Assembly (NCBI GenBank): GCA_964522845.1
Contig: CAZFZQ010000001.1
Span: forward strand, 6,559-69,414
Reading direction: 5' to 3'
Source: an uncultured Gammaproteobacteria bacterium
Lineage (GTDB): Bacteria; Patescibacteriota; Patescibacteriia; GCA-002772895
Length of the DNA: 62,856 nt
In this document: piece by piece, positions 3,112 through 51,927 of the stretch
Layout: each line of letters starts with the position of its first letter
Position numbering within the stretch: position 1 is the first letter of the stretch
Notes under the pieces: generated by a model
Databases searched by the model: none
Told to the model about the DNA's origin: nothing
The model's input: the letters and a program-made list of their open reading frames with translations, nothing else
Made by a program: the position numbers and the translations under genes

Positions 3112-3528
3112 TTGAATGGTTATGTTGGTTACGCAGGAGAAGGGGTGTTCGTTAATTTGTTGCCCATTTCATTTGATATTTGGTATAAAGTTAAGGTGGA
3201 ATGGCGTATTTCTGACCATAGAGAAAGATATACGATAAATGACGGTACGCCGAGTGATTGGTTCGTATCGGGCGGAATACAAAATTGGAATAATATTGAT
3301 ACGTTAAGATTAAGAGCGCCAAATGTCGGCAACGTTTCCATGTTTTGGGATACTCTGTCAAGCCCCGTCACTTCATCATATTTGAGTTCAAGTATAGCTA
3401 ATGTTTTTTCTTTTACCGGCTATGTTCCGGGCACGTACAATCTGCAAGCTACGGCCTGCGATCCTTTCAATCTTTGTTCTTCTCTAACAGCTCCGATTCA
3501 CGTGTTTGGCAGCCCCTGCCAGCCGTGA
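3112..3528 (+). CDS. hypothetical protein (138 aa, TTG start, no signal peptide)
   Basis: Supported only by the open frame. The sequence is rich in W/N/S/T, like a beta-sandwich fragment. It could be a remnant of a larger surface protein. Confidence 0.3.
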   Translation: MNGYVGYAGEGVFVNLLPISFDIWYKVKVEWRISDHRERYTINDGTPSDWFVSGGIQNWNNIDTLRLRAPNVGNVSMFWDTLSSPVTSSYLSSSIANVFSFTGYVPGTYNLQATACDPFNLCSSLTAPIHVFGSPCQP

Positions 3529-3631: not shown

Positions 3632-5506
3632 ATGTGCGGGATTGCGGGTTTTGTAGGAAAGGGGGACAAGGATGTTTTAAAAAAAATGTCCCAAACGCTA
3701 TATCACCGCGGGCCGGATGATGAGGGTTTTTATTTTGAAAATGGCGTCGGTTTGGGATTTCGGCGGCTCTCAATTATTGATTTAAATACCGGCAGCCAGC
3801 CGATTTTTAATGAAGACAAAAGTATCGCCGTCATTTTTAATGGCGAGATTTATAATTTTAAAGAATTGCGCGAGGGGCTTTTGGCGCGGCATAATTTTTA
3901 TACTAAAACCGACACGGAAGTTATCGTCCACCTTTACGAGGAACTGGGCGAAAAATGTTTTGAAAAATTGAACGGGATGTTCGCCATTGCCATTTGGGAT
4001 AAAAAAAATAAAAAACTGGTTTTGGCGCGCGATCGGATGGGAAAAAAGCCGCTTTATTATTTTTGGGACGAAAAAAATTTTATTTTTGGTTCCGAATTAA
4101 AAGCCATAAAAGCGCACCCGGCATTTGTGGCGGAGCTGGACTTGGCATCGCTTAACAAATATTTTTTGTATGAATACGTGCCCGCGCCGGGCTCCATTTT
4201 TAAAAACACGAAAAAACTTTTACCGGGAAATTATTTGGTATTAAAAGATGGGCGGATAAACACAGAATCTTTTTGGGATACCACTTTTCACAATCATAAA
4301 ATAAATTCGGAAAAAGAAATTTTGGCGCGAATGGATAATTTGATTAATGATGCAGTGAAGATTCGTTTGGTTTCTGATGTACCGCTGGGAGTTTTTCTTT
4401 CAGGCGGACTGGATTCAAGCACCGTGGCTTATTACGCGCAAAAAAATTCCAATCAAAAGATAAACACTTTTTCCATCGGCTTTGATGATCCGTCGTTTGA
4501 TGAAAGCGCGTACGCAAGAAGGGCGGCGAAATTTTTAGGCACTAATCATCATGAGGATGTTTTGACTTCGCGTCAAACGCAAGAATTGGTGCCGCGGATT
4601 TTTGATTTTTTGGATGAACCGCTGGCTGATGCGTCAATTATCCCAACTTATTTTTTATCAAAATTCGCGCGGCAAAATGTAACCGTGGTATTGGGCGGCG
4701 ATGGCGGCGACGAGCTGTTCATGGGCTATCCGACTTTTTTGGCGCATCAATTCTCCGGTATTTACGAAAAGCTGCCGGAGTTTTTACGGAAAAATGTTTT
4801 GGAAGCGCTGGTCGCGTGTTTGCCTGTCAATTTGAATAATATGAGTTTTGATTTTAAAGCGAAGCGGTTTATTAAAGGATTGGGAGTCCGTCCAGAGTAT
4901 CGCAACCAAATTTGGCTTGGTGCTTTTGGCCGCGAAGAGCGCGCCAAACTTTTTCGGCCGGAAATTTGGAATGAACTAAAAAATAAAAACGAGTTTGAAG
5001 ATATTGACCGCGAAGTTGATGTGTTGGGGGCGGAAGCGGCAATCAACAAAATTATTAAATTGTATCAGAAGCATTATTTGGCGGATGAGGTGCTGGTTAA
5101 GGTTGACCGGGCATCAATGGCCGCTTCGCTTGAAGTGCGCGCCCCATTTTTAGATTATCGCCTGGTTGATTTTATGAATTCCGTTTCTTTTGATCAAAAA
5201 ATGAAAAATTTTCAGACAAAATATCTGCTTAAAAAATTAATGGATGGCAAATTGCCGCGGGATATCATTTATCGTCCGAAAAAGGGTTTTGGCGTGCCTT
5301 TGGCCAAGTGGTTTAAAAAAGAATTAAAGCCGTTATTATTAGATTTGTTAAGCCAAGAAAGGATTGACAAGGAAGGATTATTCAACTATCCTTATGTTGA
5401 GAAGTTATTGAATGATCATTTTGAAGGAAAGAAGGATAACAGAAAATTAATTTGGGCATTAGCGGTTTTTGAAATGTGGAGAGAGAAGTGGTTAAAAAAT
5501 ATATAA
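3632..5506 (+). CDS. asnB: asparagine synthase (glutamine-hydrolysing) family amidotransferase
   Basis: N-terminal MCGIAGF (Ntn Cys2 glutaminase), PP-loop SGGLDSS, 624 aa. Confidence 0.9.
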   Translation: MCGIAGFVGKGDKDVLKKMSQTLYHRGPDDEGFYFENGVGLGFRRLSIIDLNTGSQPIFNEDKSIAVIFNGEIYNFKELREGLLARHNFYTKTDTEVIVHLYEELGEKCFEKLNGMFAIAIWDKKNKKLVLARDRMGKKPLYYFWDEKNFIFGSELKAIKAHPAFVAELDLASLNKYFLYEYVPAPGSIFKNTKKLLPGNYLVLKDGRINTESFWDTTFHNHKINSEKEILARMDNLINDAVKIRLVSDVPLGVFLSGGLDSSTVAYYAQKNSNQKINTFSIGFDDPSFDESAYARRAAKFLGTNHHEDVLTSRQTQELVPRIFDFLDEPLADASIIPTYFLSKFARQNVTVVLGGDGGDELFMGYPTFLAHQFSGIYEKLPEFLRKNVLEALVACLPVNLNNMSFDFKAKRFIKGLGVRPEYRNQIWLGAFGREERAKLFRPEIWNELKNKNEFEDIDREVDVLGAEAAINKIIKLYQKHYLADEVLVKVDRASMAASLEVRAPFLDYRLVDFMNSVSFDQKMKNFQTKYLLKKLMDGKLPRDIIYRPKKGFGVPLAKWFKKELKPLLLDLLSQERIDKEGLFNYPYVEKLLNDHFEGKKDNRKLIWALAVFEMWREKWLKNI

Positions 5507-5523
5507 TATGTGATGGAAATTTT

Positions 5524-7428
5524 ATGCTGGCAAAAATAAAAAAAATTATATTTAACAGATATTTTTTGATGAGCGCCGTAGTTTTGGTTGCCATTATTTC
5601 CGCATGGTATTTTACGCGCACCCATTCTTTGTTTGGGACGATTTCCAACGATGACCAGTTTTACTATGATGATATAGCGATGAATATTTTAGATGGCCGG
5701 GGTATTTTTGCCACTTGGGATTTATGGATTTATGCATGCATGAGGGTGCCATTTTACCCCCTTTTACTGTCTTTGATATATTTATTTTTTGGCCACAGTT
5801 TTTTGGCCGCGGAGATATTTCAGTTTATATTGGGTATTTTTACTTGTTTGTTTGTATATTTAATAGTCGAAAGGATATTCAACAAAATCATCGCTTTTTT
5901 TACGGCTATTATTGTTGGTATTTATCCGATATACCTTGCATTTAATTTGCAGCTGATGAGAGAATCATCCTTTATTTTTTTATTTGTTGTTTTTTCCTAT
6001 TTAATTTTAAAGACATTAGATAATCCCGTCTGGAAAAATTTTATTTTAAGCGGATTATTGTTCGGCTTAATGGTGTTAAATAGGCCGACTATATTTTTTG
6101 CCTTGCCGTTAATTTTGTCATGGCTTCTTATCATTTTTCGTAAAAATCGCAAATTATTTTTTCCTTTATCCATAGGGCTGGGACTTATTCCCGCTTTAAT
6201 GATCGGCGGCTGGTTAATACGCGGACAAATCGTAGCTGGCGCACCTAGTATGGAATATCCTGGAACTTTGAATATGTGGGCATACGCAACGAATCACTCC
6301 AAAGAGTATGAGCGAGACAATATGACTGTTAATCCGGAAATTTTATGGGACAAACCTTACGCCAGTGAGGGAGAAAGAGTAAAGAGGCTTACTAACGAAT
6401 CTCTCCAGGGTATTTTTAGAAATCCCGTTGGTCTAATAAAAAAAGGAACGCATAATTTATTTACGATGCATTGTTTTAGCGGTACGTGCTCTACGCTATG
6501 GGAGCCATTTTTAATGATTCTTGGCTTTATCGGGTTATCTTTTGGTCTGATATTATTGCCAATAACAACGATTTATTTTTTGATTTGTATTTTGGCGGTC
6601 GTTGTTCCAAGCGCCATTTTTGGCGGTAGCGGCACTTCACGATTTCGCAATCCTTTGGACTGGATATATATAATGTATGCCCTTTTCTTTATTTATGTTT
6701 TGGGAAAATCTTTAATTAACAGAAGAAGTTTAATGAATTTAATCAGTAATAAAGAATTTGGACAAATTAAACAAAATGAAAATAATATTCTAAAACATGC
6801 AAGGCGATTAATTATCCTGATTGTCGTTGCAACTATCGTTTTTGGATTGTTAAAAATTGGCTATAATAATGTATTTTGCAAAAATACCTATCTATCAGGC
6901 ATTTCTAATCAGGAGGCGGAAGAAATTTTGGCTAAGAATAAATTTCTAATTAACCGTAGCCTTAAAAATTGGGAATCGTTCGAAAATATTAAAAATTATA
7001 TTTTTGGGCACCAGATGAACTTGGATGATTATCGCGGCACGCTTATTAATTGGACGGGTATTATCCGTAACCCCGCATATATTGGCGCTAATCAAAAAAT
7101 GAACAATATGATAGTATTAAGAGCGGATAATATTCATTCGTTTGAATCAACCTTTTTTAATTTTATCATTACTTCAAACACATGTTCTTTGGGCGGGGGA
7201 AATTTTTATGCTATATTCCCCGGCCGTTTGCCTGAAAATTTTAAAGACAAATATGTGGCGGTTTTGGGACAATTAAAACAAAATAACACGCCAGCGGATC
7301 GTTTTGGCATACATGTCATTGCGATTGTACTGATAGACAAACAGGGACAGCTGGATTTTAATCAGTTGGTATTTGCAGAGAATATAACTCAGCTTCAGAA
7401 ACAATCGGATTTTTATAAAAATAAATAA
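5524..7428 (+). CDS. polytopic membrane protein, candidate GT-C fold glycosyltransferase with a large C-terminal domain
   Basis: I prefer the ATG at 5524 because the ORF-track start at 5476 overlaps asnB. There are ~12 hydrophobic helices, an acidic loop NDDQFYYDD after TM1, and a soluble ~200-aa tail. Confidence 0.55.
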   Translation: MLAKIKKIIFNRYFLMSAVVLVAIISAWYFTRTHSLFGTISNDDQFYYDDIAMNILDGRGIFATWDLWIYACMRVPFYPLLLSLIYLFFGHSFLAAEIFQFILGIFTCLFVYLIVERIFNKIIAFFTAIIVGIYPIYLAFNLQLMRESSFIFLFVVFSYLILKTLDNPVWKNFILSGLLFGLMVLNRPTIFFALPLILSWLLIIFRKNRKLFFPLSIGLGLIPALMIGGWLIRGQIVAGAPSMEYPGTLNMWAYATNHSKEYERDNMTVNPEILWDKPYASEGERVKRLTNESLQGIFRNPVGLIKKGTHNLFTMHCFSGTCSTLWEPFLMILGFIGLSFGLILLPITTIYFLICILAVVVPSAIFGGSGTSRFRNPLDWIYIMYALFFIYVLGKSLINRRSLMNLISNKEFGQIKQNENNILKHARRLIILIVVATIVFGLLKIGYNNVFCKNTYLSGISNQEAEEILAKNKFLINRSLKNWESFENIKNYIFGHQMNLDDYRGTLINWTGIIRNPAYIGANQKMNNMIVLRADNIHSFESTFFNFIITSNTCSLGGGNFYAIFPGRLPENFKDKYVAVLGQLKQNNTPADRFGIHVIAIVLIDKQGQLDFNQLVFAENITQLQKQSDFYKNK

Positions 7429-9336: not shown

Positions 9337-10518
9337 ATGGAAAGATTATTATTGATCAATCCGCCGGCAAAAGAAAAGATTATCAGAGATTATTATTGCG
9401 GCCACTTCGTGAAGGGGGACTATTTTTGGTCGCCAGTTGATTTAGTGATGTTGTCGCGCCTTGATGATTATGAAATTAAGGTTATTGATTTTATGGTGGA
9501 ATGCGATATTGATGCGGAATTAGAAAAAGCTAAAATGTTCCGCCCCAACGTAATTATCGGTATGGTTTGGGAAAAGATCTACAAAGAAGATGCTGATTTT
9601 TTAAAAAAATTGCAAGAATCAACCGGGGCTGAAAGACTGCTTTTCATCGGCGATGTAACAAAATTCAATTCGCCCAAATTGCAAGAGTTGGGCATAGAAA
9701 GCGATTTTGTAAAAAGTTTTTATCATCTTGAAAATGCCGGTTTGGGGAAATTTTCCTTGCCCAGACACCATCTTTTTCCTCTCGCGAAATATTCAATGCC
9801 TTATTCATTGAGGGGAAAAGTGGCCACGGTTTTAACAGCGTATGCCTGCCCCTTTAAATGTCGGTTTTGCAATTCAGGTTCGTATCCTTACGAGGAGAGG
9901 CCGCTTAGAGAAGTGATGGAAGAATTAAAGGAAATAAAAAAAATGGGAGTCAAAGAAATATATTTTCGCGATTTTACTTTTACGGCAAACGAAGAGAGAG
10001 TACGCGAATTATGTCGGATGATGATTGAAAAAAGGTTTGAGTTTGACTGGAGTTGTGATGGCCGGGTAAATGTATCTTTGGAAACGCTGGAGTTAATGAA
10101 GCGGGCGGGTTGTTATCTTATATTTTTTGGCGTGGAGACGGCGGACGATTGTCTTTTGCTTGAGATGCGCAAGGGGATTACAGTTGCGATGATCAAAGAC
10201 ACTTTTTTGCGGTGTAAAAAATTGGGCATCAAGGTTTTAGCCAGTTTTATTATTGGCCTTCCAAACTCAAACGACAGTGATCTTGAAAAAACTTTGGAGT
10301 TTGCCAAAAAATATTGTGACTACGCAAGTTTTAACGTTTTTGAAAATAGGGTTGGCGCCGATTTAAAATTTGATAAAGGATCGGTTGATCGGACAAGGGC
10401 GATAGAAAAAGAATTTTATTTCCGGCCGGGTTATATTTTCCGCCAGTTATTGTCAATCAAAACGATTTTTCAATTTAAAAATTTTATGAAAAACGGTTTC
10501 GCCATTTTTAAAAAGTAA
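9337..10518 (+). CDS. radical SAM protein with an N-terminal B12-binding-like domain
   Basis: Starts MERLLLINPP at the ATG at 9337, in frame with ORF 9280. Cluster CPFKCRFC (CxxxCxxC). GVETADD motif. Confidence 0.8.
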   Translation: MERLLLINPPAKEKIIRDYYCGHFVKGDYFWSPVDLVMLSRLDDYEIKVIDFMVECDIDAELEKAKMFRPNVIIGMVWEKIYKEDADFLKKLQESTGAERLLFIGDVTKFNSPKLQELGIESDFVKSFYHLENAGLGKFSLPRHHLFPLAKYSMPYSLRGKVATVLTAYACPFKCRFCNSGSYPYEERPLREVMEELKEIKKMGVKEIYFRDFTFTANEERVRELCRMMIEKRFEFDWSCDGRVNVSLETLELMKRAGCYLIFFGVETADDCLLLEMRKGITVAMIKDTFLRCKKLGIKVLASFIIGLPNSNDSDLEKTLEFAKKYCDYASFNVFENRVGADLKFDKGSVDRTRAIEKEFYFRPGYIFRQLLSIKTIFQFKNFMKNGFAIFKK

Positions 10519-12670: not shown

Positions 12671-14368
12671 ATGAGGTTTTTAAAAAATAATTGGATTTTG
12701 ATATTGATTTTGGCCACGGCTTTTGTTTTGCGCTTTGTGGGCATTTTTTATGGCTACCCCCTGATTTTAGCTGGCGACGAAACCCCGACTCTGCTGGCGA
12801 GTTTGAAAATGATCGGAACGCATTCGTTACGAGCGGCCACGCCGGGCTATTATTATCCCGCGTTATTATCTTATATTTATTTGCCTTTTTTGGTTATTTT
12901 TTTGGGATTTGGGCGGTTGTTTGGACTTTTTTCTGATATTAAAGCAATGCAAGAAGCGGTATTTTTTAATTTAGGAATTTTTATTCCTGTTGTCAGATTT
13001 GTAAGCGTCTTTTTAGGGACACTATCCGTTTATCTTTCATATAAAATAACGCGCCTGCTGTTTAATGATAAAAAAACAGGTTTGCTCGCGGCTTTTTTTG
13101 TGACCATAAGTTATTTTAATGTAAGCAATGCTCATTTTGCGCAAACCTGGACGGCGCAAACTTTTTTTATCCTTTTGGCACTGTATTTTGCCATAAAATT
13201 TTATAAAAAGGATAATCCTGGGGCAAAGGATTATATTTTTGGAGGACTGATTGTCGGCGTTGCCTTCGGGATTAATTTTGTCGGTATTCTAAGTTATTTT
13301 TGGTTTGTTCTGGCGCATTTTTTGCGAAATAAAAAAGACGGCTTTGTAAAAATTTTTATCAAAAACAAAAGTTTTTGGCTGATGAATTTATTTTTACTGT
13401 TGACGATGATTTTAGTTTATTATTTAAATCCCTACGGATTGAATAATTATCTTTCGAGGATTATGTATCCGAGTGCGGATGCGGCGGTAGGAATCGGGAA
13501 CTCATCATATAAGCCTTTTAGTTTTAGTTTTTTAAAAGTTTTATGGTTTTATATAAAAAATACAGTGATACAAGAACCCGTTTTTTTTGCGCTGGCATTG
13601 GCGGGCAGTGTTTTTTTGTGGTTGCGAAATAAAATTATTTTTTATTTTTTGGTGTTATGGGCTATCCTCTATTATTTAATGATTTCGCCTTTAACGGGAG
13701 CAATGGGAAGGTACATATTACCCGTAGTTCCGCTAATGGCGATTATTACGGCCGGATTTATACAGGCAAGGTTTAGTGGTTTTTTAAATAAAAAAATTGT
13801 TTGGATATGTTTAATTATTATTTCTATCTATTCAATTTATTTTAGTATTTTATTTGATATAAGAATGCTAAAACAAGACACGCGTGTTTTGGCGAGAAAT
13901 TGGATTTTAGAAAATATTCCCTCCGGATCAATTATCAAAAACGAGTATTTCGGCGAAAGCTTGTATCTAATTGAGGATAAGCGGGGCATTAATTTGATAA
14001 AAGATAATCGGCCGGAATTGTTTTCTACAAAAAGAAAATATTTATTGAGTTTGTCGGACAAGGATTATCCGAAATCGAATTATTTTATCTCCGGCCTTTC
14101 TGACATTTCTCGGTTGGTGCCAAAATTTGATTATGTTATTTTGGCCGGTTTTGATAAAAATGATTTAAGCAAACAGGCGGAAGATTTGCCAAAAAACGCG
14201 GAATTGATTAAGGTTTTTTATCCGGTTAAAATTAAAGACAATTTATTACTTCAGCCTTCATTTAAAAAATTACAGTTTACCCCGGATAATTCTCAATTTA
14301 GGCCGTGGTTTCTTTTTGAGCAAGTGGATTATAATGGGCCTTATATAGAAATTTATAAATTGCGATAA
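12671..14368 (+). CDS. polytopic membrane protein, GT39/ArnT-like GT-C glycosyltransferase candidate
   Basis: 565 aa. The AGDETP acidic motif sits in the first loop. There are ~11 helices and a ~170-aa soluble C-terminus. Confidence 0.6.
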   Translation: MRFLKNNWILILILATAFVLRFVGIFYGYPLILAGDETPTLLASLKMIGTHSLRAATPGYYYPALLSYIYLPFLVIFLGFGRLFGLFSDIKAMQEAVFFNLGIFIPVVRFVSVFLGTLSVYLSYKITRLLFNDKKTGLLAAFFVTISYFNVSNAHFAQTWTAQTFFILLALYFAIKFYKKDNPGAKDYIFGGLIVGVAFGINFVGILSYFWFVLAHFLRNKKDGFVKIFIKNKSFWLMNLFLLLTMILVYYLNPYGLNNYLSRIMYPSADAAVGIGNSSYKPFSFSFLKVLWFYIKNTVIQEPVFFALALAGSVFLWLRNKIIFYFLVLWAILYYLMISPLTGAMGRYILPVVPLMAIITAGFIQARFSGFLNKKIVWICLIIISIYSIYFSILFDIRMLKQDTRVLARNWILENIPSGSIIKNEYFGESLYLIEDKRGINLIKDNRPELFSTKRKYLLSLSDKDYPKSNYFISGLSDISRLVPKFDYVILAGFDKNDLSKQAEDLPKNAELIKVFYPVKIKDNLLLQPSFKKLQFTPDNSQFRPWFLFEQVDYNGPYIEIYKLR

Positions 14369-44032: not shown

Positions 44033-44099
44033 TCCTCACTCTTGGTACTCCAAGGGGGAGGCGGCCTCTTGGCCGGTGGGGGATTTTTACCCTTTAGTA

Positions 44100-45184
44100 T
44101 GAAAACAAAACTGGAACAATTAAAAAATGACGCGAGCGCAGAACTCCAAAAAATCGCAACCGCGGAAGAATTGCGGGATTTTGAAATTAAAATTTTCGGG
44201 CGAAAAGGCAAGTTTAATGATTTGACTAAAGAATTGGGAACGCTTGCCATTGCGGAAAGAAAAGAAATGGGGCGCTTGGCAAACGAGGTGCGAGCTGTGT
44301 TGGAAAAAGCAATCGGCGAACGCCGGCAGGAGTTTGAATCGGCGCGTTTGAATGATTTGGCGAAAACCGAGTGGATTGACAAAACTTTACCCGGAGTAAA
44401 ACCCGAGCTGGGGCATTTGCATTTGATGACGCAGGCGATTGATGAAATTTCGGACATATTTATCCGATTGGGGTTTGTCCGCCGCCGATATCCGGAAATT
44501 GAATGGGATTGGTATGCTTTTGAATCATTGAATATGCCAAAGGACCATCCGGCGCGCGACGAATGGGAGACATTTTTTATTGATTTGCCCGAAGGGAATC
44601 CTTCTTCGCACAAGGCTACGAAGGACAGGGGGAAAATAGTTTTGACGCCGCACACGTCAAGCGGCCAGGTACGTGAAATGGAGCGCGGCGAACTTCCTAT
44701 TAGGATGATGAATATTTCCAAATGCTACCGCCGGCAAGCGGATGTGACGCACGTACCAATGTTTCATCAGTTTGAAGGGTTATTGATTGATAAAGGAGTT
44801 TCCATCGCGCACCTAAAAGGCACACTGGATTATTTCGCGCGTGAATTTTTTGGCGCGTCACGGAAAACGCGTTTGCGCCCGTTTCATTTTCGTTTTACCG
44901 AACCGTCATTTGAAATTGATATTTCCTGCGATGTTTGCAATGGTACGGGAAAATTATCAAATGGCGACAAATGCCGTGTTTGCAAACAGGGCTGGTTGGA
45001 ATTGGGCGGCGCGGGCATGGTTCATCCGAATGTTTTGCGCGCCGGGGGCATTGATCCGAAAAAATACAACGGCTTTGCTTTTGGCTGGGGCGTGGAGCGC
45101 ACCTTTATGATGAAAGAAGGAATGAAAATTGACGACCTCCGCATACTTTATAAAAATGATTTGAGGTTTATCAGGCAGTTTTGA
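44100..45184 (+). CDS. pheS: phenylalanine--tRNA ligase alpha subunit
   Basis: ATG at 44100 (MKTKLEQLK). Class II motifs, including HPARDEWETFF and FRFTEPSFEIDI. Confidence 0.95.
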
Positions 45185-45195
45185 TTCCGACTTTT

Positions 45196-45236
45196 CTCCC
45201 CCTTAAGGTAAGGGGGAGTTAGAGGGGGTTATGAAT
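45196..45236 (+). repeat. copy of the C5/G5 palindromic repeat
   Basis: CTCCCCCTTAAGGTAAGGGGGAGTTAGAGGGGGTTATGAAT with a 10-bp perfect stem. Its ATG supplies the first in-frame start of the next ORF. Confidence 0.75.
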
Positions 45237-46847
45237 ATGGAAAAATTACCTAAAAAAGAACAGCCCGAACAAACCGTTAATTATACTGTGGAAGGAATTT
45301 TTGAAACCGAAGACGGCGGAAAATTTGAACGGCGGAAGTATGAATATCGCGATGCCGCGGGCGAAGTTCAGGCCGAAGGCGTAGTGGAATTATTTGAAGG
45401 CGAGGCGGCGATAAGCGAGGAATTAGCGGATGAGAAAAAAAACGGAATAGGCAGAGCGTTAAAGAGTTTTATTTTGAGAAGTAAGCAAGCGGAAGAGGGG
45501 AGCGAAGAATTTGATTTGATGAAAGTTGCCAATTCTCCGGGTGTTAATGTGATAGTTGCCGACCGGCCGCTGAAAAATTATCGTTATGGGGATACGAGCC
45601 GGTGCGTAACATCGCCTCCGCTTGATTCCCCGTTTAATATCGCCATATTGCTTCACGAGCTTGGACATGCCGGGCAATTCGAAGATGGGCGCGAGGCGAA
45701 AAAAACAGGCAGGGAAGAAAGCAAAGTGGAAAAATTTTTGCCTGCCGCTTCGTGGGCAAGGGATTTGAAAGCCGGAAAGCTAACGGCTGACGCAAAAACC
45801 GTTGCGGCAAATATTAAAAAAATTTTTGAAATAGATCCTGACGCGCGGTTGCTCATTCCTCCGGAAACGTTCCAAGCCGCCATAAAAAAATTGCGCGACA
45901 TAGAAGGAAAAATAATGAAAGTTGAAAATGATAAAGCGGGAATAAAAAATGAGCAGGATGAAAAAAAAGAATATCAGAGCTATGCTTTGATTGATGTTAT
46001 CGGCAAAGGAATGAAAGAAAGATTTTTTCCGCTGGATGAAATGATAGAGCGGGTAAAGCGCGAACTTAACGAGGGAGGTTTTGATGATGAGACAGTTATG
46101 CAGGACTGGAAAGCAAGACTGGAAGCCGCAGGAATTTTTTTAAGCCATCAAAAAAAAGAAGCCAAAGAAGAAGAAAAAGAAAAGCATTGGCGTTTTGGAG
46201 AAGAAAGACCCGAGCCGCCGGAACTCGGCGCGGAAGATATAAAAAATTTGCACGACATAAAAACGGTTCTTAAGACAATAAGAAGTTTGCGCTACGATGA
46301 GTCAAAGATAAATTATGAAGGAGGAAAACGGCAAATGACGGTTCGGTTTCCATTGGGACTGGATATCGGCGATAAATTTTCCGCTAACCTGCTATTAGAT
46401 GTTGAACCCGAGGATTTTGCGGATTTTGAAGTAAGAATCAGCGAATTAGAGCAGGAAACGGGTGAATTGGAAAGAAAAAAATCTCCCATTGATGAAAAAA
46501 TAAAAAATTTGGAATCCGAATATCAAAAGGTTTTAGACGAGCTGGAAGGCGTTATCAAATTGCCCGTTAAAGTTGAGGAGCGCGACGCCACTTATCGCGC
46601 TATGCGGTGGCTCACGCAATTAAGAGATAAAAGCGGCATTGACTTTTTGCATAAAGAATTTATTCCGCCAGTCGGAGGTACGCCGAAGAGCGATTGCGGC
46701 GACTCGGTCCGGGGCGGCGTCCACGAATTGTTGGAAAAAGAAAGACCGCATAAGCCGCGGGTGATATTGAAAAAAGCGCTCGGCACATACAAAGCCGAAC
46801 ACCCGCCGCATACGCAGAGTTTTTGGGGGAAGAAGGTAAAAAAATAA
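45231..46847 (+). CDS. hypothetical 538-aa protein with an HExxH motif and coiled-coil, charged regions
   Basis: NIAILLHELGHAGQ motif with E/K-rich stretches. An alternative start lies at 45237. Confidence 0.55.
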   Translation: MNMEKLPKKEQPEQTVNYTVEGIFETEDGGKFERRKYEYRDAAGEVQAEGVVELFEGEAAISEELADEKKNGIGRALKSFILRSKQAEEGSEEFDLMKVANSPGVNVIVADRPLKNYRYGDTSRCVTSPPLDSPFNIAILLHELGHAGQFEDGREAKKTGREESKVEKFLPAASWARDLKAGKLTADAKTVAANIKKIFEIDPDARLLIPPETFQAAIKKLRDIEGKIMKVENDKAGIKNEQDEKKEYQSYALIDVIGKGMKERFFPLDEMIERVKRELNEGGFDDETVMQDWKARLEAAGIFLSHQKKEAKEEEKEKHWRFGEERPEPPELGAEDIKNLHDIKTVLKTIRSLRYDESKINYEGGKRQMTVRFPLGLDIGDKFSANLLLDVEPEDFADFEVRISELEQETGELERKKSPIDEKIKNLESEYQKVLDELEGVIKLPVKVEERDATYRAMRWLTQLRDKSGIDFLHKEFIPPVGGTPKSDCGDSVRGGVHELLEKERPHKPRVILKKALGTYKAEHPPHTQSFWGKKVKK

Positions 46848-46875
46848 TTTGAGGTTTATTAAACAATTTTAAAAT
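46839..46875 (+). repeat. decayed duplicate of the pheS 3' end
   Basis: AAAAATAATTTGAGGTTTATTAAACAATTTTAA here versus AAAAATGATTTGAGGTTTATCAGGCAGTTTTGA at 45152-45184. All differences are G/C to A/T transitions. Confidence 0.6.
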
Positions 46876-46888
46876 TAATTTTTTGAAT

Positions 46889-47368
46889 ATGTCCAAACAA
46901 GAACAAGTGCCAACAATGTCCGACGAAGAAATGGCGCAGAGAGAAAAAGAAGCTGCGCAATTATTATCGCCAGAGGATGAATTAGACCCTGAAAAACAAG
47001 AAATGCGCGGAAGATTCTTAGAATCTTTAAAGCGCGGCAGCATTCAAGAGTTGAAAAAGTTTTTATATCATCGCGGAACAGACCGGTATGATTTTATAGA
47101 TTTTGAAAATCCCGAAGTTATGGAGGCGGCACAGATCGGCCTTGAATACGTGAAAGAAAACGAACATAAATTGGGATTGAGCCGCACGCTTGATTTTATA
47201 AAAATGATGAAAGAAGAGGGGATTGAAGAAGAGAACGAAGAAGAAAAGACGGAAAGAATCGGCGATATAAGAGCGGAAATAAAAGGCAGTGGTGAAGAGA
47301 ATAGTTTAGATTCTGAAAAAACTAAAAAAGCGGCTAGAAAATGGAAAGCCAGAAGAGGATTGCGTTAA
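46889..47368 (+). CDS. acidic hypothetical protein (159 aa)
   Basis: ATG at 46889 (MSKQEQV). E/K-rich with no recognisable motif. Confidence 0.5.
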   Translation: MSKQEQVPTMSDEEMAQREKEAAQLLSPEDELDPEKQEMRGRFLESLKRGSIQELKKFLYHRGTDRYDFIDFENPEVMEAAQIGLEYVKENEHKLGLSRTLDFIKMMKEEGIEEENEEEKTERIGDIRAEIKGSGEENSLDSEKTKKAARKWKARRGLR

Positions 47369-47385
47369 AAAAATTATAAATTTAT

Positions 47386-47706
47386 ATGCGCTGGATTTTA
47401 CCTTTATCGCTTTTGATTGTTTTTGAAATTATTGCGGATATTTTCGCCAAAGAGTATTCAATCCACGGAACATGGTTGAGGTGGCTTGCGGCAATTAGCG
47501 CATATGTGATTGCCAATATTTTTTGGCTTATAGCCATTCGGCATGGCTCCGGTTTAGCGCGAGGCGCGATAATTTTTTCTGTCTCGTCCGCAGTTATTGC
47601 CGTTGTCCTGGGGCTGCTTTTGTATAAAGAGCAAGTGGGCAAAGCACAAATTGCAGGCGCAGTTTTAGGTATTATTTCCTTAATTTTGATATTTTGGAAC
47701 GATTAA
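47386..47706 (+). CDS. 4-TM SMR/DMT-like small membrane transporter (EmrE/ArnE-like)
   Basis: 106 aa with four hydrophobic helices and a conserved Glu in TM1 (FEIIADIFAK). Confidence 0.6.
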   Translation: MRWILPLSLLIVFEIIADIFAKEYSIHGTWLRWLAAISAYVIANIFWLIAIRHGSGLARGAIIFSVSSAVIAVVLGLLLYKEQVGKAQIAGAVLGIISLILIFWND

Positions 47707-47710
47707 TTTT

Positions 47711-47752
47711 ATGAACATTCTTGTTTCCTACAATTGGCTGAAAATAAAATGA
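47711..47752 (+). repeat. displaced duplicate of the pheT 5' end (13 codons then a stop)
   Basis: ATGAACATTCTTGTTTCCTACAATTGGCTGAA matches 49360-49391 with 1 mismatch. Confidence 0.8.
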
Positions 47753-47756
47753 TATT

Positions 47757-48098
47757 ATGCCGATAAAAATTATAAAAGATAAAATTACTTTGGATGAGTT
47801 AAAAATTTTAGCCAAAGAACGCTACGGCGATATGGTTAAAGTGGTTTTAGATATTGAAAAAGAAATTATGGCCGCCGGTGCAGAAATGCATGTTGATGAA
47901 GAACAGCTTTTGCTGGAGAACGGATCAGAGCAGAAAAATTTATGGGGTATAAATTTGTATCCGGATGGAAAAGAGTTTGTAGAGTTTGATTCAATGATAA
48001 ACATCAGGCCTTGGCAGCATAATCGTTCGCGGGGAGTGGAAGATAAAGATACGCAAAATAAAATCAAAAAAATTATTGATAAATTAGTTGATAAATAA
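47757..48098 (+). CDS. small conserved-looking hypothetical protein (113 aa)
   Basis: Open frame, with a 1-nt gap to the next small ORF. No catalytic motif recognised. Confidence 0.55.
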   Translation: MPIKIIKDKITLDELKILAKERYGDMVKVVLDIEKEIMAAGAEMHVDEEQLLLENGSEQKNLWGINLYPDGKEFVEFDSMINIRPWQHNRSRGVEDKDTQNKIKKIIDKLVDK

Positions 48099-48099
48099 C

Positions 48100-48429
48100 A
48101 TGGAATATAACTTTCAACATAAGGAGCTCGCCGCCGGCCGATGGAAAAAATTTACTTTTGCTGAACAGATGGGGAATATCGGCAGTGAAGTAAGCCGAGC
48201 AATAAAGTGGCGCGGGCGAGAAGAAAAATATTTTAATAATGCAGTTGATCGCGCGCTGGAGTTGATTGATTTAACGATTGCCGACCGGCGCTGGAGAAGC
48301 CGACTAAAAGAAATTTTACTTTTGCGAGAGGTTTTGTGCGACATTGTCTTTGGCGAGAAACAATATAAAACCGATTTGGTGGATTTAGATAAATATTTAT
48401 TTAATTTCGCGGTTCTGGCGCGCAGATAA
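48100..48429 (+). CDS. small all-helical hypothetical protein (109 aa)
   Basis: ATG at 48100 (MEYNF). The AEQMGNIGSEVSRAI segment vaguely resembles MazG-like helical NTP-PPases (weak). Confidence 0.5.
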   Translation: MEYNFQHKELAAGRWKKFTFAEQMGNIGSEVSRAIKWRGREEKYFNNAVDRALELIDLTIADRRWRSRLKEILLLREVLCDIVFGEKQYKTDLVDLDKYLFNFAVLARR

Positions 48430-48436
48430 GTTTAAT

Positions 48437-49363
48437 ATGTTGAAAAGTTTATTCAACAAATTGATAGAATCTTACATTTTCGTTTTGTTGACGGCTCTTT
48501 TGGTCGGCATAATTTTTTCAAAGTACGCGGTTAAGGTTGCGCCGTATAATACGATTTTTTTGGGAATAATTTTTTTCTTCAGCGCGCTCAAGATTGACTT
48601 GAAAGAGGTTGCGGGATATCTTAAGGATAAAAAGATGATTGTCGTAGTTAATTTGTTCATGTTGTTCTTTTTACCTATTATCGTTTATTATCTGACACTC
48701 GGGGTCTATCCGGATTTGGCAATTGCATTTTTGATTTTAGCCGCCATGCCCTGCGGTATGACAACTCCGCTTTTATCGGAAATATGCGGAGGCCGGCAAG
48801 GTCTTGCCCTGGTCTTAGTTGTTACAACATCGCTTTTAGCTCCGTTTACCGCGCCTTTGGTAATTAAATTGGTTGCGGGAACGGCCGTTACGGTTAGTTT
48901 TTACACAATGTTCCTTTCTTTGGCAAAAGTTATTTTTATCCCTTTTGTTCTGGCCAACATCATAAAATTTTTCTGGCATCATAGGATAAAGGCGACTTAT
49001 TTTACTTTTAAGCCGATTTCCATAATTTTTCTCGCGCTTTTGATTATGGGCACGGTGGCGCAAAAAGCCGCCGTAATAATGAACGGATTGCAGGGAAAAT
49101 TTTTGATTTATGTTGTTTTGCTTTTTGCGCTGTTTGTGGTTTTGCACTTTTTTGGATATTTCACCATTTTTTGGCGCGAGAAAAAAGACAGGGTGACGGT
49201 TACGATTTGTCTCACATATATGAATTTTACTCTGGCAATATATCTTGCGGGTAATTTCTTTAATGAACCGAATGTTATCGTGCCGGTTGTACTTTCCATT
49301 TTACCCTGGTCGCTAATGATACTCCCGTTCAAATATTTAATGAAAAAATATAAATTTATATGA
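48437..49363 (+). CDS. 9-10 TM transporter, bile acid:Na+ symporter (BASS)/ACR3-like
   Basis: 308 aa, polytopic. The family assignment is from overall topology and length only. Its stop overlaps the pheT ATG. Confidence 0.5.
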   Translation: MLKSLFNKLIESYIFVLLTALLVGIIFSKYAVKVAPYNTIFLGIIFFFSALKIDLKEVAGYLKDKKMIVVVNLFMLFFLPIIVYYLTLGVYPDLAIAFLILAAMPCGMTTPLLSEICGGRQGLALVLVVTTSLLAPFTAPLVIKLVAGTAVTVSFYTMFLSLAKVIFIPFVLANIIKFFWHHRIKATYFTFKPISIIFLALLIMGTVAQKAAVIMNGLQGKFLIYVVLLFALFVVLHFFGYFTIFWREKKDRVTVTICLTYMNFTLAIYLAGNFFNEPNVIVPVVLSILPWSLMILPFKYLMKKYKFI

Positions 49364-51927
49364 ACATTCTTGTTTCCTACAATTGGTTGAAGGAATATCT
49401 GAAAACCGACTTGCCGCCGGAAGAATTTGCGGCCAAAGTTTCGCTTTGCGGGCCGTCGGTGGAGCGTATCCATCATCAGGGAACTGATTTGGATAAAATT
49501 GTTGTGGGAAAAATTTTGGGAGTGGAAAAACATCCTAATGCTGATAAATTGCGTTTGGTAGAAGTTGATATCGGCCCCACTTCGCCAAGGCTTCGCGGGA
49601 CAAGCCATAAACTCAAAGTGGTTTGTGGCGGGTCAAATTTGCAGGGCGGGATGAAAGTGGCGGTGGCGCTTTCCGGCGCAAAAATAAAATGGCACGGAGA
49701 AGGGGAGCTTGTGGAATTGAAACCAACAGAAATCCGCGGCGTGAAAAGCGAGGGAATGATCTGCGCGGCCGAAGAAATCGGGCTTGGCGCCGAGTTTCCA
49801 AAAAAAGATGAAAAAGAAATTTTAGATTTGTCGGATTTGTACGCGAAGCCGGGCACGCCCGGTAGTGAAACTTTGGTTCGCCGCTCTGGCGGCGCAAGAT
49901 TGGAATCTACCAAAGTTCTACTACCGGGCACGCCGCTTGCGGAAGCATTAAATTTGAAAGATGTTGTTTTTGATATTGAAGTGACAACCAACCGGCCGGA
50001 CATGATGTCAATTTTGGGAATTGCGCGCGAGGCGGGAACGATTTTGAAATCGCCGTTTACGATGCCGAAAATTGCGTCGCTAAAAGGTAGGGATGGCGGC
50101 GTTTCTTTGAAGGTAAAAAATGAAGAGCCGGAATTGTGCTATCGCTATCAGGCAATTGTGATAGAAGGCGTAAAAATAAAAAATTCTCCATGGTGGCTGA
50201 AACAAAAATTGGCCGCCGCGGGTACGCGCTCAATAAATAATGTCGTGGATATTACTAATTTTGTTTTGTGGGAAATGGGTCAGCCGCTGCACGCTTTTGA
50301 TTATGAAAAATTGGAAGGGAAAAATATTATTATCCGCAAGGCAAAAAAGGGCGAAAAAATAAAAGCGCTGGATGGATTGGATTATAAATTAAAAGAAGAA
50401 ATGCTCGTGATTGCCGACGGCAAAAAACCCGTGGCCATTGCCGGTGTTATGGGCGGAGAGGCGACGGGCGTGACGGATGGCACGCACACGATTGTGCTGG
50501 AAGCCGCGACTTTTGACCCCGTGTCCGTTCGCAGGACTTCGCGAGCTCTAAATTTGCGTAGCGATTCATCTAATCTATTTGAAAAAGGATTATCCACCGA
50601 GGCAACTAGCGTTGCTTTGGCGCGGGCGGCGGAACTGGTGATTCAACTTGCTGGCGGAGGAATTGCGAGCAAAGTTTTTGATTTGCGTGAAAAAGATTTT
50701 AAACCAAATGCCGTGGTCATGTCCGTGGAAAAAGCCAATAAAATAATGGGCATAGAGTTGGAGGCCGAGGCAATGGCGGATATTTTGAAACGGCTGGGAT
50801 TTGCCGTGAGCGTTAAAGGTAATGAGATAAAAGCCAAAGCGCCCTATTGGCGCGAAAATGATATGGAGATAGAAGAGGACTTGATTGAAGAAATAGCGCG
50901 GGTTTACGGCTACCATCGGTTGCCGTCCGTGCTTCCGGCCGGATCTCCTCCTTTTGGAAAAGGGAGGGACGGAGGGATGTTCCAATGGGAAAAAACCGCC
51001 AAACAGCTCGCTGCATCCGCGGGCTATGACGAAATTATTTCTTATGGAATGATTAGCAAAGGCATGATGGACGCGGCGGGCGAAAAAGACGCCATAAAGA
51101 TCGCCAATCCATTATCGGTGGATTTGGAATATATGCGCACCTGTCTTATGCCCGGACTTTTGCAAGCTGTGGCGCAAAATGAAAATAATTTTCCATCTGC
51201 AAAAATTTTTGAACTTTCCCGCGTTTACACGCCCGCCAAAAAAGGCGTCCGCCAGCTGGCGGATTTGCCGAAAGAAGAATTGCATTTTGCGGGGATAAAT
51301 TATGGCAAGTCGTCCAAGGGTGAATTATTTTATGAAGCCAAGGGTTTTGCGGAAATGATTTTGGAAAAATTTGGCATTTTTTCGTCTGTCATTCCCGCGG
51401 AGGCGGGAATCCAGTTCCATGAATCCGACGATAAAAATTTTCATCCCGCGCGCTCCGTTGATATATATTTCAAAAAAGATTGGATTGGCGCTTATGGCGA
51501 AGTGCACCCCATAACGGCTAAAAATTTTGGCCTATCCTGCGAAGCCGGACTTTTCTATTTTGATTTTGACGCCCTGCTCGCTCATGCCAAATCGCACAAA
51601 GCATACGCGCCCATTCCGGAATTTCCGGGCGTGAAGCGCGACATTTCTTTTATTGTTGATAAAAAAATGGAATACGAAAAAATAAAACAAACCGTGGCGT
51701 CGGCCCACGCGCTCGTCGCCGAAGTGGAGCCGTTTGATGTGTATGAACCATCCTTCGCTAAAGCTTCGGATGGCAGGGGGCAAATTCCTATGGGTAAGAA
51801 AAGTATTGCGCTTCATATTCTTTTCCAATCTGCCAATCGCACATTGGAAGCCAAAGAAGCGGACGAGGCATTTGAAAAAATAGTTTCCGCATTGAAAAAG
51901 GATTTTGGCGCGGAAATCAGAATGTGA
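49360..51927 (+). CDS. pheT: phenylalanine--tRNA ligase beta subunit
   Basis: MNILVSYNWLKEYL start, tRNA-binding domain, B3/4 and B5 regions, TTNRPD. 855 aa including several repeat-derived insertions. Confidence 0.95.
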   Translation: MNILVSYNWLKEYLKTDLPPEEFAAKVSLCGPSVERIHHQGTDLDKIVVGKILGVEKHPNADKLRLVEVDIGPTSPRLRGTSHKLKVVCGGSNLQGGMKVAVALSGAKIKWHGEGELVELKPTEIRGVKSEGMICAAEEIGLGAEFPKKDEKEILDLSDLYAKPGTPGSETLVRRSGGARLESTKVLLPGTPLAEALNLKDVVFDIEVTTNRPDMMSILGIAREAGTILKSPFTMPKIASLKGRDGGVSLKVKNEEPELCYRYQAIVIEGVKIKNSPWWLKQKLAAAGTRSINNVVDITNFVLWEMGQPLHAFDYEKLEGKNIIIRKAKKGEKIKALDGLDYKLKEEMLVIADGKKPVAIAGVMGGEATGVTDGTHTIVLEAATFDPVSVRRTSRALNLRSDSSNLFEKGLSTEATSVALARAAELVIQLAGGGIASKVFDLREKDFKPNAVVMSVEKANKIMGIELEAEAMADILKRLGFAVSVKGNEIKAKAPYWRENDMEIEEDLIEEIARVYGYHRLPSVLPAGSPPFGKGRDGGMFQWEKTAKQLAASAGYDEIISYGMISKGMMDAAGEKDAIKIANPLSVDLEYMRTCLMPGLLQAVAQNENNFPSAKIFELSRVYTPAKKGVRQLADLPKEELHFAGINYGKSSKGELFYEAKGFAEMILEKFGIFSSVIPAEAGIQFHESDDKNFHPARSVDIYFKKDWIGAYGEVHPITAKNFGLSCEAGLFYFDFDALLAHAKSHKAYAPIPEFPGVKRDISFIVDKKMEYEKIKQTVASAHALVAEVEPFDVYEPSFAKASDGRGQIPMGKKSIALHILFQSANRTLEAKEADEAFEKIVSALKKDFGAEIRM
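49858..49928. mobile_element. 71-bp TIR element inserted in frame in pheT (75 nt with the duplicated CACG)
   Basis: CCCGGTAGTGAAACTTTGG (49858-76) and CCAAAGTTCTACTACCGGG (49910-28). CACG flanks it at 49854-57 and 49929-32. It encodes PGSETLVRRSGGARLESTKVLLPGT. Confidence 0.55.

Follow-up and report, generated by a model that had tools for sequence, protein, structure and literature searches.

The window analyzed here is a 62,856-nt stretch (C1:6559-69414) of a 0.9-Mb, 90-contig genome of the Candidate Phyla Radiation (CPR)/Patescibacteria type. Within it, pheS and pheT, the genes for the alpha and beta chains of phenylalanyl-tRNA synthetase, are separated by a 4.2-kb interval, and a short second copy of each gene's inward-facing end lies inside that interval. 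On the + strand, which carries all the window features described below, the order is RseP, an acidic open reading frame (ORF), pheS (44099..45184), a hairpin element, ORF538, ORF161, an EamA gene, a DUF5674 gene, ORF113/109, an SBF gene, and pheT (49360..51927). Both synthetase genes are intact and single-copy (Pfam tRNA-synt_2d at 1.7e-80 for pheS and five Pfam PheT domains for pheT), and alignment with relatives makes the ATG at 44099 the most likely start of pheS.

The last 33 nt of pheS (45152-45184, ending IRQF*) recur at 46840..46872, where they read KNNLRFIKQF* and overlap the stop codon of ORF538. The two copies are 27/33 identical at a spacing of 1688 nt, and all six differences from the working end run from G/C to A/T. 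The initial annotation had correctly seen this copy after ORF538, but its placement and spacing are corrected by the values given here. The start of pheT (49360-49391) recurs with a single mismatch at 47711-47742, right after the EamA gene. As had been noted, this copy forms a stub of 13 codons (MNILVSYNWLKIK*), which begins at ATG 47711 and ends at 47752. The pair extends to 47707-47742 and 49356-49391 (34/36 identical, spacing 1649 nt), with a longest identical run of 27 nt, and homology continues to an AAA/AAG difference at 47743-47745. We delimit the displaced start as 47707..47746 and its working counterpart as 49356-49395.

Both duplicates are genuine and lie beyond chance. When the 4.2-kb interval was shuffled 2000 times under a first-order Markov model, matches to the pheS end came to 24/33 at best and those to the pheT start to 22/32, so that none (0/2000) equalled the observed values. 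Each duplicated sequence occurs in exactly two places in the genome. An independent Logan contig (run SRR8863431) matches 46623-49602 at 100% identity. It spans the inner junctions, taking in the pheS remnant, the stub, and the genuine start of pheT, so the structure cannot be put down to an artefact of a single assembly.

Content of the pheS-pheT interval in relatives

Relatives were found through the PheS protein (76-86% amino acid identity) and are labelled here with G or L numbers. They conserve the flanks, Lon-RseP-acidic ORF-pheS on one side and pheT on the other, while the content between them differs by lineage. In G002, from the same family, pheS and pheT are 2 nt apart with nothing between them, and G001 has one 111-amino-acid ORF at this position. 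L069/L071 carry ORF430, ORF111, a decayed DUF5674 gene, and an ORF113 homologue abutting pheT. An ORF538 homologue directly follows pheS in L066 and L067; L072/L073 have ORF194, an EamA homologue, and an acidic ORF; and L057 has ORF451, an SBF gene (90% amino acid identity to that of the window), ORF218, a GH1 glycosidase gene, and an AbiEii pair. L065 (GCA_017973895.1) holds an MmeI-type restriction-modification (RM) gene and a Fic gene.

Because pheS and pheT are adjacent in G002 and other, unrelated genes stand between them in other relatives, the 4.2-kb interval of the window is accessory DNA that entered here, as was supposed from the outset. An ancestral pheS-EamA-pheT order across the class was considered and rejected, since the ~340-nt gaps of other members are not EamA homologues and EamA is patchy. 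Several modules recur: the SBF gene in the window and L057; the AbiE cassette in L057 and L067; the DUF5674/ORF113 pair in the window and L069, with a remnant in L065; the ORF538-type gene (ORF5xx) in the window, L066, and L067; and the EamA gene in the window, L072, and L074. The two discrete cassettes of the initial annotation do not survive this comparison. They are composites, and the ORF538 family, the DUF5674/ORF113 pair, and the SBF gene each occur in other combinations in relatives. In this clade of Patescibacteria, the interval seems to be a hotspot for swapping accessory genes between related lineages. The contigs of G002, L057, L066, and L068 end exactly at the interval, which suggests strain-level heterogeneity.

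L110 (8510-8978) has as the sole gene between pheS and pheT a 114-amino-acid bAvd/23S-rRNA-IVP-like gene flanked by ~35-nt terminal inverted repeats (AGAATTTAGAAAATAGAAA...). The hotspot there holds a single-gene element of a different, terminal-inverted-repeat type. Scans with the pheT start as an exact pattern, which do not amount to a stub census, returned only the L069 lineage from JGI metagenomes and, in two scans of GTDB genomes, first none and then five single-copy matches. L105, which came from the GTDB scan, has a 3.8-kb island without stubs.

Displaced gene ends and their breakpoints

Stubs like those of the window occur in relatives. L065 has three copies of the pheT start, in the order stub1 (~53 nt)-ORF113 remnant-RM gene-stub2 (61 nt)-Fic gene-pheT. 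Its stub1 (10207-~10262) is fused to the last ~66 nt of an ORF113-type gene (remnant at 10255-10321), and stub2 (13516-13587, 61 coding nt) lies ahead of the Fic gene. Between the pheS stop and the first of these stubs, L065 also carries a ~140-nt long-stem palindromic element (10057-10206; CCGCTGGATTTTTCCG...CGAAAAAATCCAGCGG) resembling a miniature inverted-repeat transposable element. In L067, ORF547 is followed by a 60-nt pheT stub with an in-frame TAG and then by an AbiE-type cassette, whose promoter-like left border is the same as in L057. L074 shows non-pheS DNA, a 74-nt pheS-end stub that is 93% identical to the working pheS end of the window, an EamA gene (76% amino acid identity), ORF102, a short pheS-end stub, a spacer, and the start of ORF161. 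Over 39 nt of remnant tail, spacer, and ORF161 start, L074 and the window are 92% identical.

These amount to seven stubs in four lineages. The pheT breakpoints lie at an offset of ~36 nt in the window, of 53 and 61 nt in L065, and of 60 nt in L067, and the pheS stubs measure ~12, 33-37, and 74 nt from the gene end. Because the breakpoints differ between events, a single-core site-specific recombinase is not supported. Stub2 of L065 (at 13587) and the L067 stub (at 3294), from different lineages and with different cargo, both stop at the palindrome GGCGCC(G), their ends no more than 1 nt apart.

Three joints display short microhomology. The fusion of L065 stub1 with ORF113 lies in 12-13 nt, AAAACYGAYTTGG, that are found in both pheT and ORF113; the parental sequences are known from relatives and read GAAAACCGAYTTG in pheT and AAAACCGATTTGG in the 3' region of ORF113. 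The ORF538 stop and the pheS remnant overlap in the A-rich microhomology AAAAAT[A/G]A, and the Lys-rich C-terminus of ORF538 is native because homologues end in the same way. The native stop of the SBF gene (TTTATATGA) overlaps the pheT ATG; because the SBF gene ends with the same sequence in L057 before another gene, this junction is a 5-nt overlap, TATGA. The duplicates had first been explained as attL/attR-type products of site-specific insertion. That explanation is not supported, since breakpoints vary, the cargo is unrelated, and the junctions have microhomology instead of a common core. What holds of it is that a complete gene end was kept or supplied beside each insert and that the short duplicates are scars of entries.

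Allelic state of the stubs

The pheS remnant differs at 6/33 positions from the window's own pheS end, at 3/33 from that of L110, and at 5 each from those of L065 and G001. Its ATT-AAA-CAA-TTT-TAA is the IKQF* allele of L110, L065, and G001, and the RQF* allele is present in every lineage with an ORF5xx-type gene after pheS. The copy had been thought to be decayed by G/C to A/T changes. All six differences do have that direction, but at five of the six the remnant carries an allele known from relatives whose pheS works, which leaves GAT to AAT (Asp to Asn), in an otherwise invariant codon, as the one change that looks like decay after displacement.

The pheT stub of the window differs from the working start at two sites (CTG/TTG and AAA/AAG), both synonymous and both equal to working pheT alleles of L065 and L069. 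In L065, stub1 and stub2 are the same over 49 nt, and both differ from the working start at three synonymous sites. We pooled nine stub/gene pairs, four from the window locus and L065 and five from the other loci of the window's genome described below. Their differences fall on codon positions 1, 2, and 3 in the numbers 12, 8, and 30, and most stubs keep the same peptide. By our own arithmetic, this bias departs from an even spread with a chi-square of ~16.5 (p ~3e-4). The stubs look like alleles and not just decayed copies.

Recombinase genes

A Pfam scan of all six island ORFs found no recombinase, transposase, or integrase domain, in keeping with the initial annotation, and no recombinase was called next to the stubs or in the islands of L065, L067, and L074. 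The genome as a whole has one PF00589 tyrosine recombinase (Xer-like), on contig C10 and far from the locus; a Xer-type housekeeping recombinase would account for this single gene. The genome also encodes ComEC and DprA.

Genes between pheS and pheT

Between the pheS stop and the original ATG of ORF538 (45237) lies a C5/G5 hairpin mini-element of ~50 nt (45187..45236; CTCCCCCTT/AAGGGGGAG), a member of a multi-copy family in this genome. It supplies ORF538 with a new in-frame upstream ATG, reading ATGAAT (+ATGG). The equivalent spot in L057 reads TGATTTATGGAAAAATTACC and has no hairpin, and L068 has a similar or related one at the same spot after pheS.

ORF538 (45231..46847) contains an HExxH motif (LLHELGH) and weakly matches the Pfam DUF6782 metallopeptidase family, at an E-value of 0.0019 that is below the cut-off. 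It is 28% identical to ORF547 of L067 over 531 amino acids (1.6e-41) and 34% identical to the L066 gene over 239 amino acids. The family is fast-evolving, is found directly 3' of pheS in both of these lineages, and has a paralogue on contig C7. The first ~30 nt of ORF538 (45237-45267) are common to ORF451 of L057 (39-68), with nothing detectable afterwards.

ORF161 (46889..47368) encodes an acidic protein with no Pfam, NCBIfam, or PADLOC match, apart from which a weak 19-amino-acid motif match links it to the acidic ORF behind the EamA gene in L072. It probably stood directly after pheS before ORF538 arrived. Comparison of ORF538, ORF161, and ORF111 of G001 for homology gave only weak, compositionally driven matches.

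The next gene (47386..47706) encodes a half-size transporter of the EamA/DMT type (106 amino acids, Pfam EamA 1e-6). It had been called SMR-like, a minor point that is corrected here. It is accessory and patchy, being present in 23/401 class genomes and mostly elsewhere than between pheS and pheT; homologues lie near pheS in L072/L073 and behind the pheS-end stub in L074.

Beyond the pheT stub, the DUF5674 gene (47757..48098, Pfam DUF5674 3.7e-37) is the first half of a two-gene module. DUF5674 occurs in 83/401 class genomes (21%), and an ORF113 homologue follows it in 30/30 loci sampled, making the two a fixed pair. Residues 52-89 gave a single-blade match to the WD40 repeats of a Nostoc protein (PDB 2ymu, E 8e-10, LWGINLYPDGK), because of which DUF5674 may contain a WD40-like beta-strand unit. 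Its partner, ORF113/109 (48100..48429), starts at ATG 48100, encodes 109 amino acids, and has no family or PDB match. It shares 64% amino acid identity with its L069 homologue, which overlaps the pheT ATG.

The SBF/BASS-family transporter gene (48437..49363; 308 amino acids, Pfam SBF 1.9e-18) appears to have been acquired as a single-gene unit. Its closest homologues (90%, 73%, and 71% amino acid identity) all have different neighbours, and at the nucleotide level it is homologous to the L057 gene (83%) from about codon 6 to precisely the stop codon. The first five codons (48437-48452, compared with L057:1402-1420) differ. Recombination joints just inside gene starts would produce such uncoupled gene starts and bodies.

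The stretch 46800-49400 is mildly AT-rich, with a GC content of 37-40% vs 43.7% for the genome. Measured against the genome's genes, the DUF5674 gene and ORF161 are the only low outliers, and ORF538, ORF113, and SBF (by GC3) are ordinary. GC and codon usage were dropped as evidence of foreign origin. Searches of NCBIfam, PADLOC, and PDB sequences for cargo function returned nothing beyond Pfam, including no meaningful match to a PADLOC defence model; the EamA and SBF proteins are small transporters. In a promoter and terminator scan of the island, sites were no commoner than in shuffles. Because there is no + strand terminator inside the island, pheS to pheT is probably still one transcription unit.

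Similar scars at other loci

Self-comparison of the window's genome located four further loci with scars, at the ends of GlyRS, FtsH, and MraY and at the start of a DUF262 gene. GlyRS is thus the second aminoacyl-tRNA synthetase gene in this genome with a gene-end scar. About 150 nt of its 3' end (C42:2940-3099 and 5737-5946, ~84% identical) are repeated after a 2.7-kb insert with five small ORFs. A 63-nt piece of the FtsH C-terminus is duplicated 2.1 kb downstream (C11:7959-8021/10065-10127). The last ~70 nt of MraY exist in three copies, two of them stubs (C39:447-534, 5394-5466, and 6395-6448). The cargo between them comprises an HExxH/vWA-like 661-amino-acid ORF, a MoxR-like AAA ATPase, and a small pair including a DTG aspartic-protease-like protein. 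At the DUF262 gene start, two 61-nt copies (C26:8582-8642/9597-9657) are 95% identical with three synonymous differences and lie around a 321-amino-acid ORF.

Elsewhere in the class, at least 2/30 sampled DUF5674/ORF113 loci have long flanking repeats or gene-end stubs. In L079, 140-nt direct repeats (928-1060 and 2034-2171) flank the pair. In L100, 58 nt of a CxC-rich C-terminal gene end (KVGRNDPCPCGSGKKYKK; 600-657 and 1403-1460), which we take to be that of SecA, are present as a copy just upstream of the pair.

Origin of the scars

The comparative evidence favours homology-anchored illegitimate recombination. We give a probability of roughly 55% to the reading that imported DNA, anchored in pheS or pheT, was joined by homologous recombination on one side and by illegitimate recombination on the other, as in homology-facilitated illegitimate recombination (HFIR). 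pheS and pheT would serve as homology anchors for exchanges between lineages, most of which would leave no trace. A scar would form when only one side of the imported DNA undergoes homologous recombination, within pheS or pheT, and the other side is attached by an illegitimate joint, resting on a few bases of microhomology, that falls in the very end of that gene. The recipient's own gene end would then be displaced as a stub, and the donor's complete end, attached to the cargo, would take over. The outcome would be an "insertion with long target duplication", a known class to which we return below. On the pheT side, a linear fragment consisting of cargo and the 5' part of pheT would cross over inside pheT, while its free left end would be joined to recipient DNA upstream of that crossover, some dozens of bases inside pheT. 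This would yield the recipient stub, the cargo, and a complete pheT with a donor-type start, and the pheS 3' end would show the mirror image. Where a genome has almost no intergenic DNA, few joints are harmless; those just within a gene end belong to them, given that a complete copy follows.

Applied to the window, this reading would begin with an ancestor of the form pheS(..IKQF*)-ORF161-EamA-pheT. A pheS-anchored event would have imported the pheS 3' part and ORF538 from an L066/L067-type lineage, leaving the old end at 46840-46872. A pheT-anchored event would have imported DUF5674-ORF113-SBF and a new pheT start, with the old start left behind at 47707-47746. Both the order of these events and the assignment of donor and recipient are as we infer them. 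Both parents of the pheS-side event have counterparts among relatives: pheS-ORF5xx occurs with the same spacing in L057, L066, and L067, and a pheS-ORF161 adjacency is implied because the junction of stub and ORF161 is common to the window and L074. DNA uptake by competence is plausible because the genome encodes ComEC and DprA.

Several points weigh against this history. The codon-position bias differs from the expectation for duplication followed by decay at only p ~0.05 by our own estimate, and neutral decay would also give remnant differences that all run from G/C to A/T. Sliding-window identity along pheS revealed no clear mosaic breakpoint, with pheS about equidistant from L065 and L066 throughout, and pheT sequences were too few for a mosaic comparison of its 5' end. 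Because no donor with SBF directly before pheT was found among the relatives, the pheT-side event may have needed more steps. The shared GGCGCC(G) end of two stubs could reflect a preferred cut site or shared ancestry and not random joints. Finally, the argument for natural transformation in these organisms is one from gene content.

The favoured process has precedents. HFIR in natural transformation, for which PMC5361080 and PMC3240628 cite de Vries & Wackernagel 2002, Prudhomme et al. 2002, and Meier & Wackernagel 2003, likewise combines one homologous anchor with one microhomology joint and needs no mobility enzyme; ComEC and DprA are encoded here, and illegitimate joints at short microhomology are present at L065 stub1, ORF538/remnant, and SBF/pheT. 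Laboratory crosses are the setting in which HFIR has been described, and there its usual result is a deletion in the recipient, whereas here it is deduced from sequence and the illegitimate joint would lie inside the anchor gene itself, hence the duplication. The HFIR model has been proposed for serial displacement arrays in Vibrio type VI secretion system and Rhs loci (PMC5361080). In the orphan immunity genes of the Vibrio cholerae type VI secretion system and in orphan Rhs/contact-dependent inhibition tips (Kirchberger et al. 2017, PMC5361080), an incoming module anchored upstream pushes older modules, each with a conserved gene-end remnant, downstream to give an array of stubs. Those arrays stand behind polymorphic toxin genes under toxin/immunity selection, whereas the anchors here are housekeeping synthetase genes and the stubs are 12-75 nt long.

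A true target-site duplication is unlikely, though it is the alternative that we take most seriously. Staggered nicks 30-75 nt apart in the gene end, made for example by a restriction enzyme or by one of the small GIY-YIG nucleases of the genome, would have been filled in around a captured foreign fragment, so that both copies would derive from resident sequence. This is the reading first given to the class termed "insertion with long target duplication" (Nobusato et al. 2000; Furuta, Abe & Kobayashi 2010, Nucleic Acids Research, PMC2853133), which has repeats of variable length exceeding 30 bp and no mobility gene, is found mostly in naturally competent species, and whose mechanism was left open. 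Like that class, the window has unique, non-dispersed direct repeats >30 bp that vary in length and overlap gene ends (36 nt, 34/36 identical, and 33-34 nt, 27/33), around inserts of 1.65 and 1.69 kb, well under 20 kb, without a transposase, an integrase, or other mobility genes. Candidate empty sites exist in relatives, namely the adjacent pheS-pheT of G002, the stubless ORF113-pheT of L069, and pheS-ORF5xx without a remnant in L066/L067, although all are at most 86% identical in PheS and hence none is isogenic. The MmeI-type RM gene of L065 is bracketed by two pheT-start copies, two stubs of different lineages end at the palindrome GGCGCC, and the right border of the SBF gene is its own stop codon with only the 5-nt overlap with pheT, all as a target-site duplication could leave them.

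The locus is a new example of this known, mechanistically unsettled class, in an uncultivated phylum. Still, it departs from the class in several respects. RM cargo is found only in L065, whereas the window carries two transporters, the DUF5674 pair, an HExxH protein, and an acidic ORF, that is, transporters and uncharacterized proteins. The events of the window are stacked at both ends of one interval between essential synthetase genes of a CPR bacterium, and its copies look like different alleles and not like a copied target. Against a target-site duplication as mechanism, several relatives have pheS-ORF5xx as a native junction, which gives the pheS-side event a homologous side. Moreover, the remnant is nearer to another lineage's working allele than to the window's own, the two L065 stubs are identical to each other and unlike the working start, and the differences are biased to third codon positions.

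Two small integrative elements, mobilized in trans by a site-specific recombinase at att sites in the pheS 3' and pheT 5' ends, are an improbable origin. Each element would carry a replacement gene end, as e14 or phage 21 does at icd of Escherichia coli, where the displaced end survives as a short pseudogene (icdC), and as tRNA-gene islands do. Direct repeats do bracket the inserts exactly at gene ends and leave the genes intact, and the genome has one tyrosine recombinase elsewhere. Elements with tRNA genes or icd as their target likewise vary in the length of the gene-end copy they carry. However, those elements have their own integrase and one fixed crossover site, and neither was found at pheS-pheT. 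Neither here nor in L065, L067, and L074 does the island contain or adjoin a recombinase gene, the breakpoints differ and share no core, the borders have no inverted repeats, and the cargo is different each time and made up of separately distributed modules. Integron cassettes were rejected as well, with no IntI-type gene at the locus and borders that are gene-end copies; a repeat search that used no dedicated attC model found no attC-like imperfect palindromes at the borders. Integron, transposon, and prophage readings all lack supporting genes or terminal repeats at the borders.

It is hardly probable that a single event produced both duplicates, with a foreign fragment from the last 33 nt of pheS through ORF161 and EamA to the first 36 nt of pheT inserted by two illegitimate joints into a resident pheS-ORF538-DUF5674-ORF113-SBF-pheT island. 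The nested arrangement, with working ends outside and stubs inside, would follow naturally; the outer genes (ORF5xx by pheS and ORF113 by pheT) are the common residents of the clade, and the inner block is somewhat AT-rich. Yet this event would need two illegitimate joints and no homologous one, a combination that in natural transformation is orders of magnitude rarer than HFIR, and a fragment ending in pheS and pheT would rather replace the island by ordinary homologous recombination. A single event also leaves unexplained that each end of the fragment lies just within a flanking gene, and it cannot account for the serial stubs of L065 and L074.

An assembly artefact, in which strain variants of the island were chained into a chimeric contig at short shared sequences, might seem suggested by the four contigs of relatives that break at the locus, but it is very improbable given that the remnant differs at 6/33 positions and is no shared k-mer, that the identical run of the pheT pair is only 27 nt, that the Logan contig spans all inner junctions at 100% identity, and that comparable stubs exist in four other independent assemblies.

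Implications

Although the genomes of CPR bacteria are tiny and tightly packed and hold few classical mobile elements, they differ widely in gene content. Traced over about ten lineages, the pheS-pheT interval offers an unusually complete natural record of gene exchange. It holds seven scars with at least six breakpoints among them; the parental arrangements are known for one event, and another has a 12-nt microhomology. It shows defence-type genes (RM, Fic, and AbiE), transporters, and uncharacterized modules being shuffled at the ends of core genes without an integrase. With it, "insertion with long target duplication" reaches beyond RM genes to ordinary cargo, and into the Patescibacteria. 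On the practical side, stubs of this kind make false short ORFs and break metagenome assemblies, and a split pheS and pheT should not be taken as loss of the operon.

We consider it doubtful, though worth stating, that stub-tagged cassettes are a general, recombinase-free route of gene gain in CPR/Patescibacteria. The initiating breaks might come from the small nuclease/hairpin elements that abound in the genome and insert at start codons. If this route were general, the end of a housekeeping gene (pheS, pheT, glyS, ftsH, or mraY) would act as an "address label" for the module that adjoins it. Any related cell taking up such a fragment could use homology to anchor it and insert it next to its own gene copy, with serial stubs as the result.

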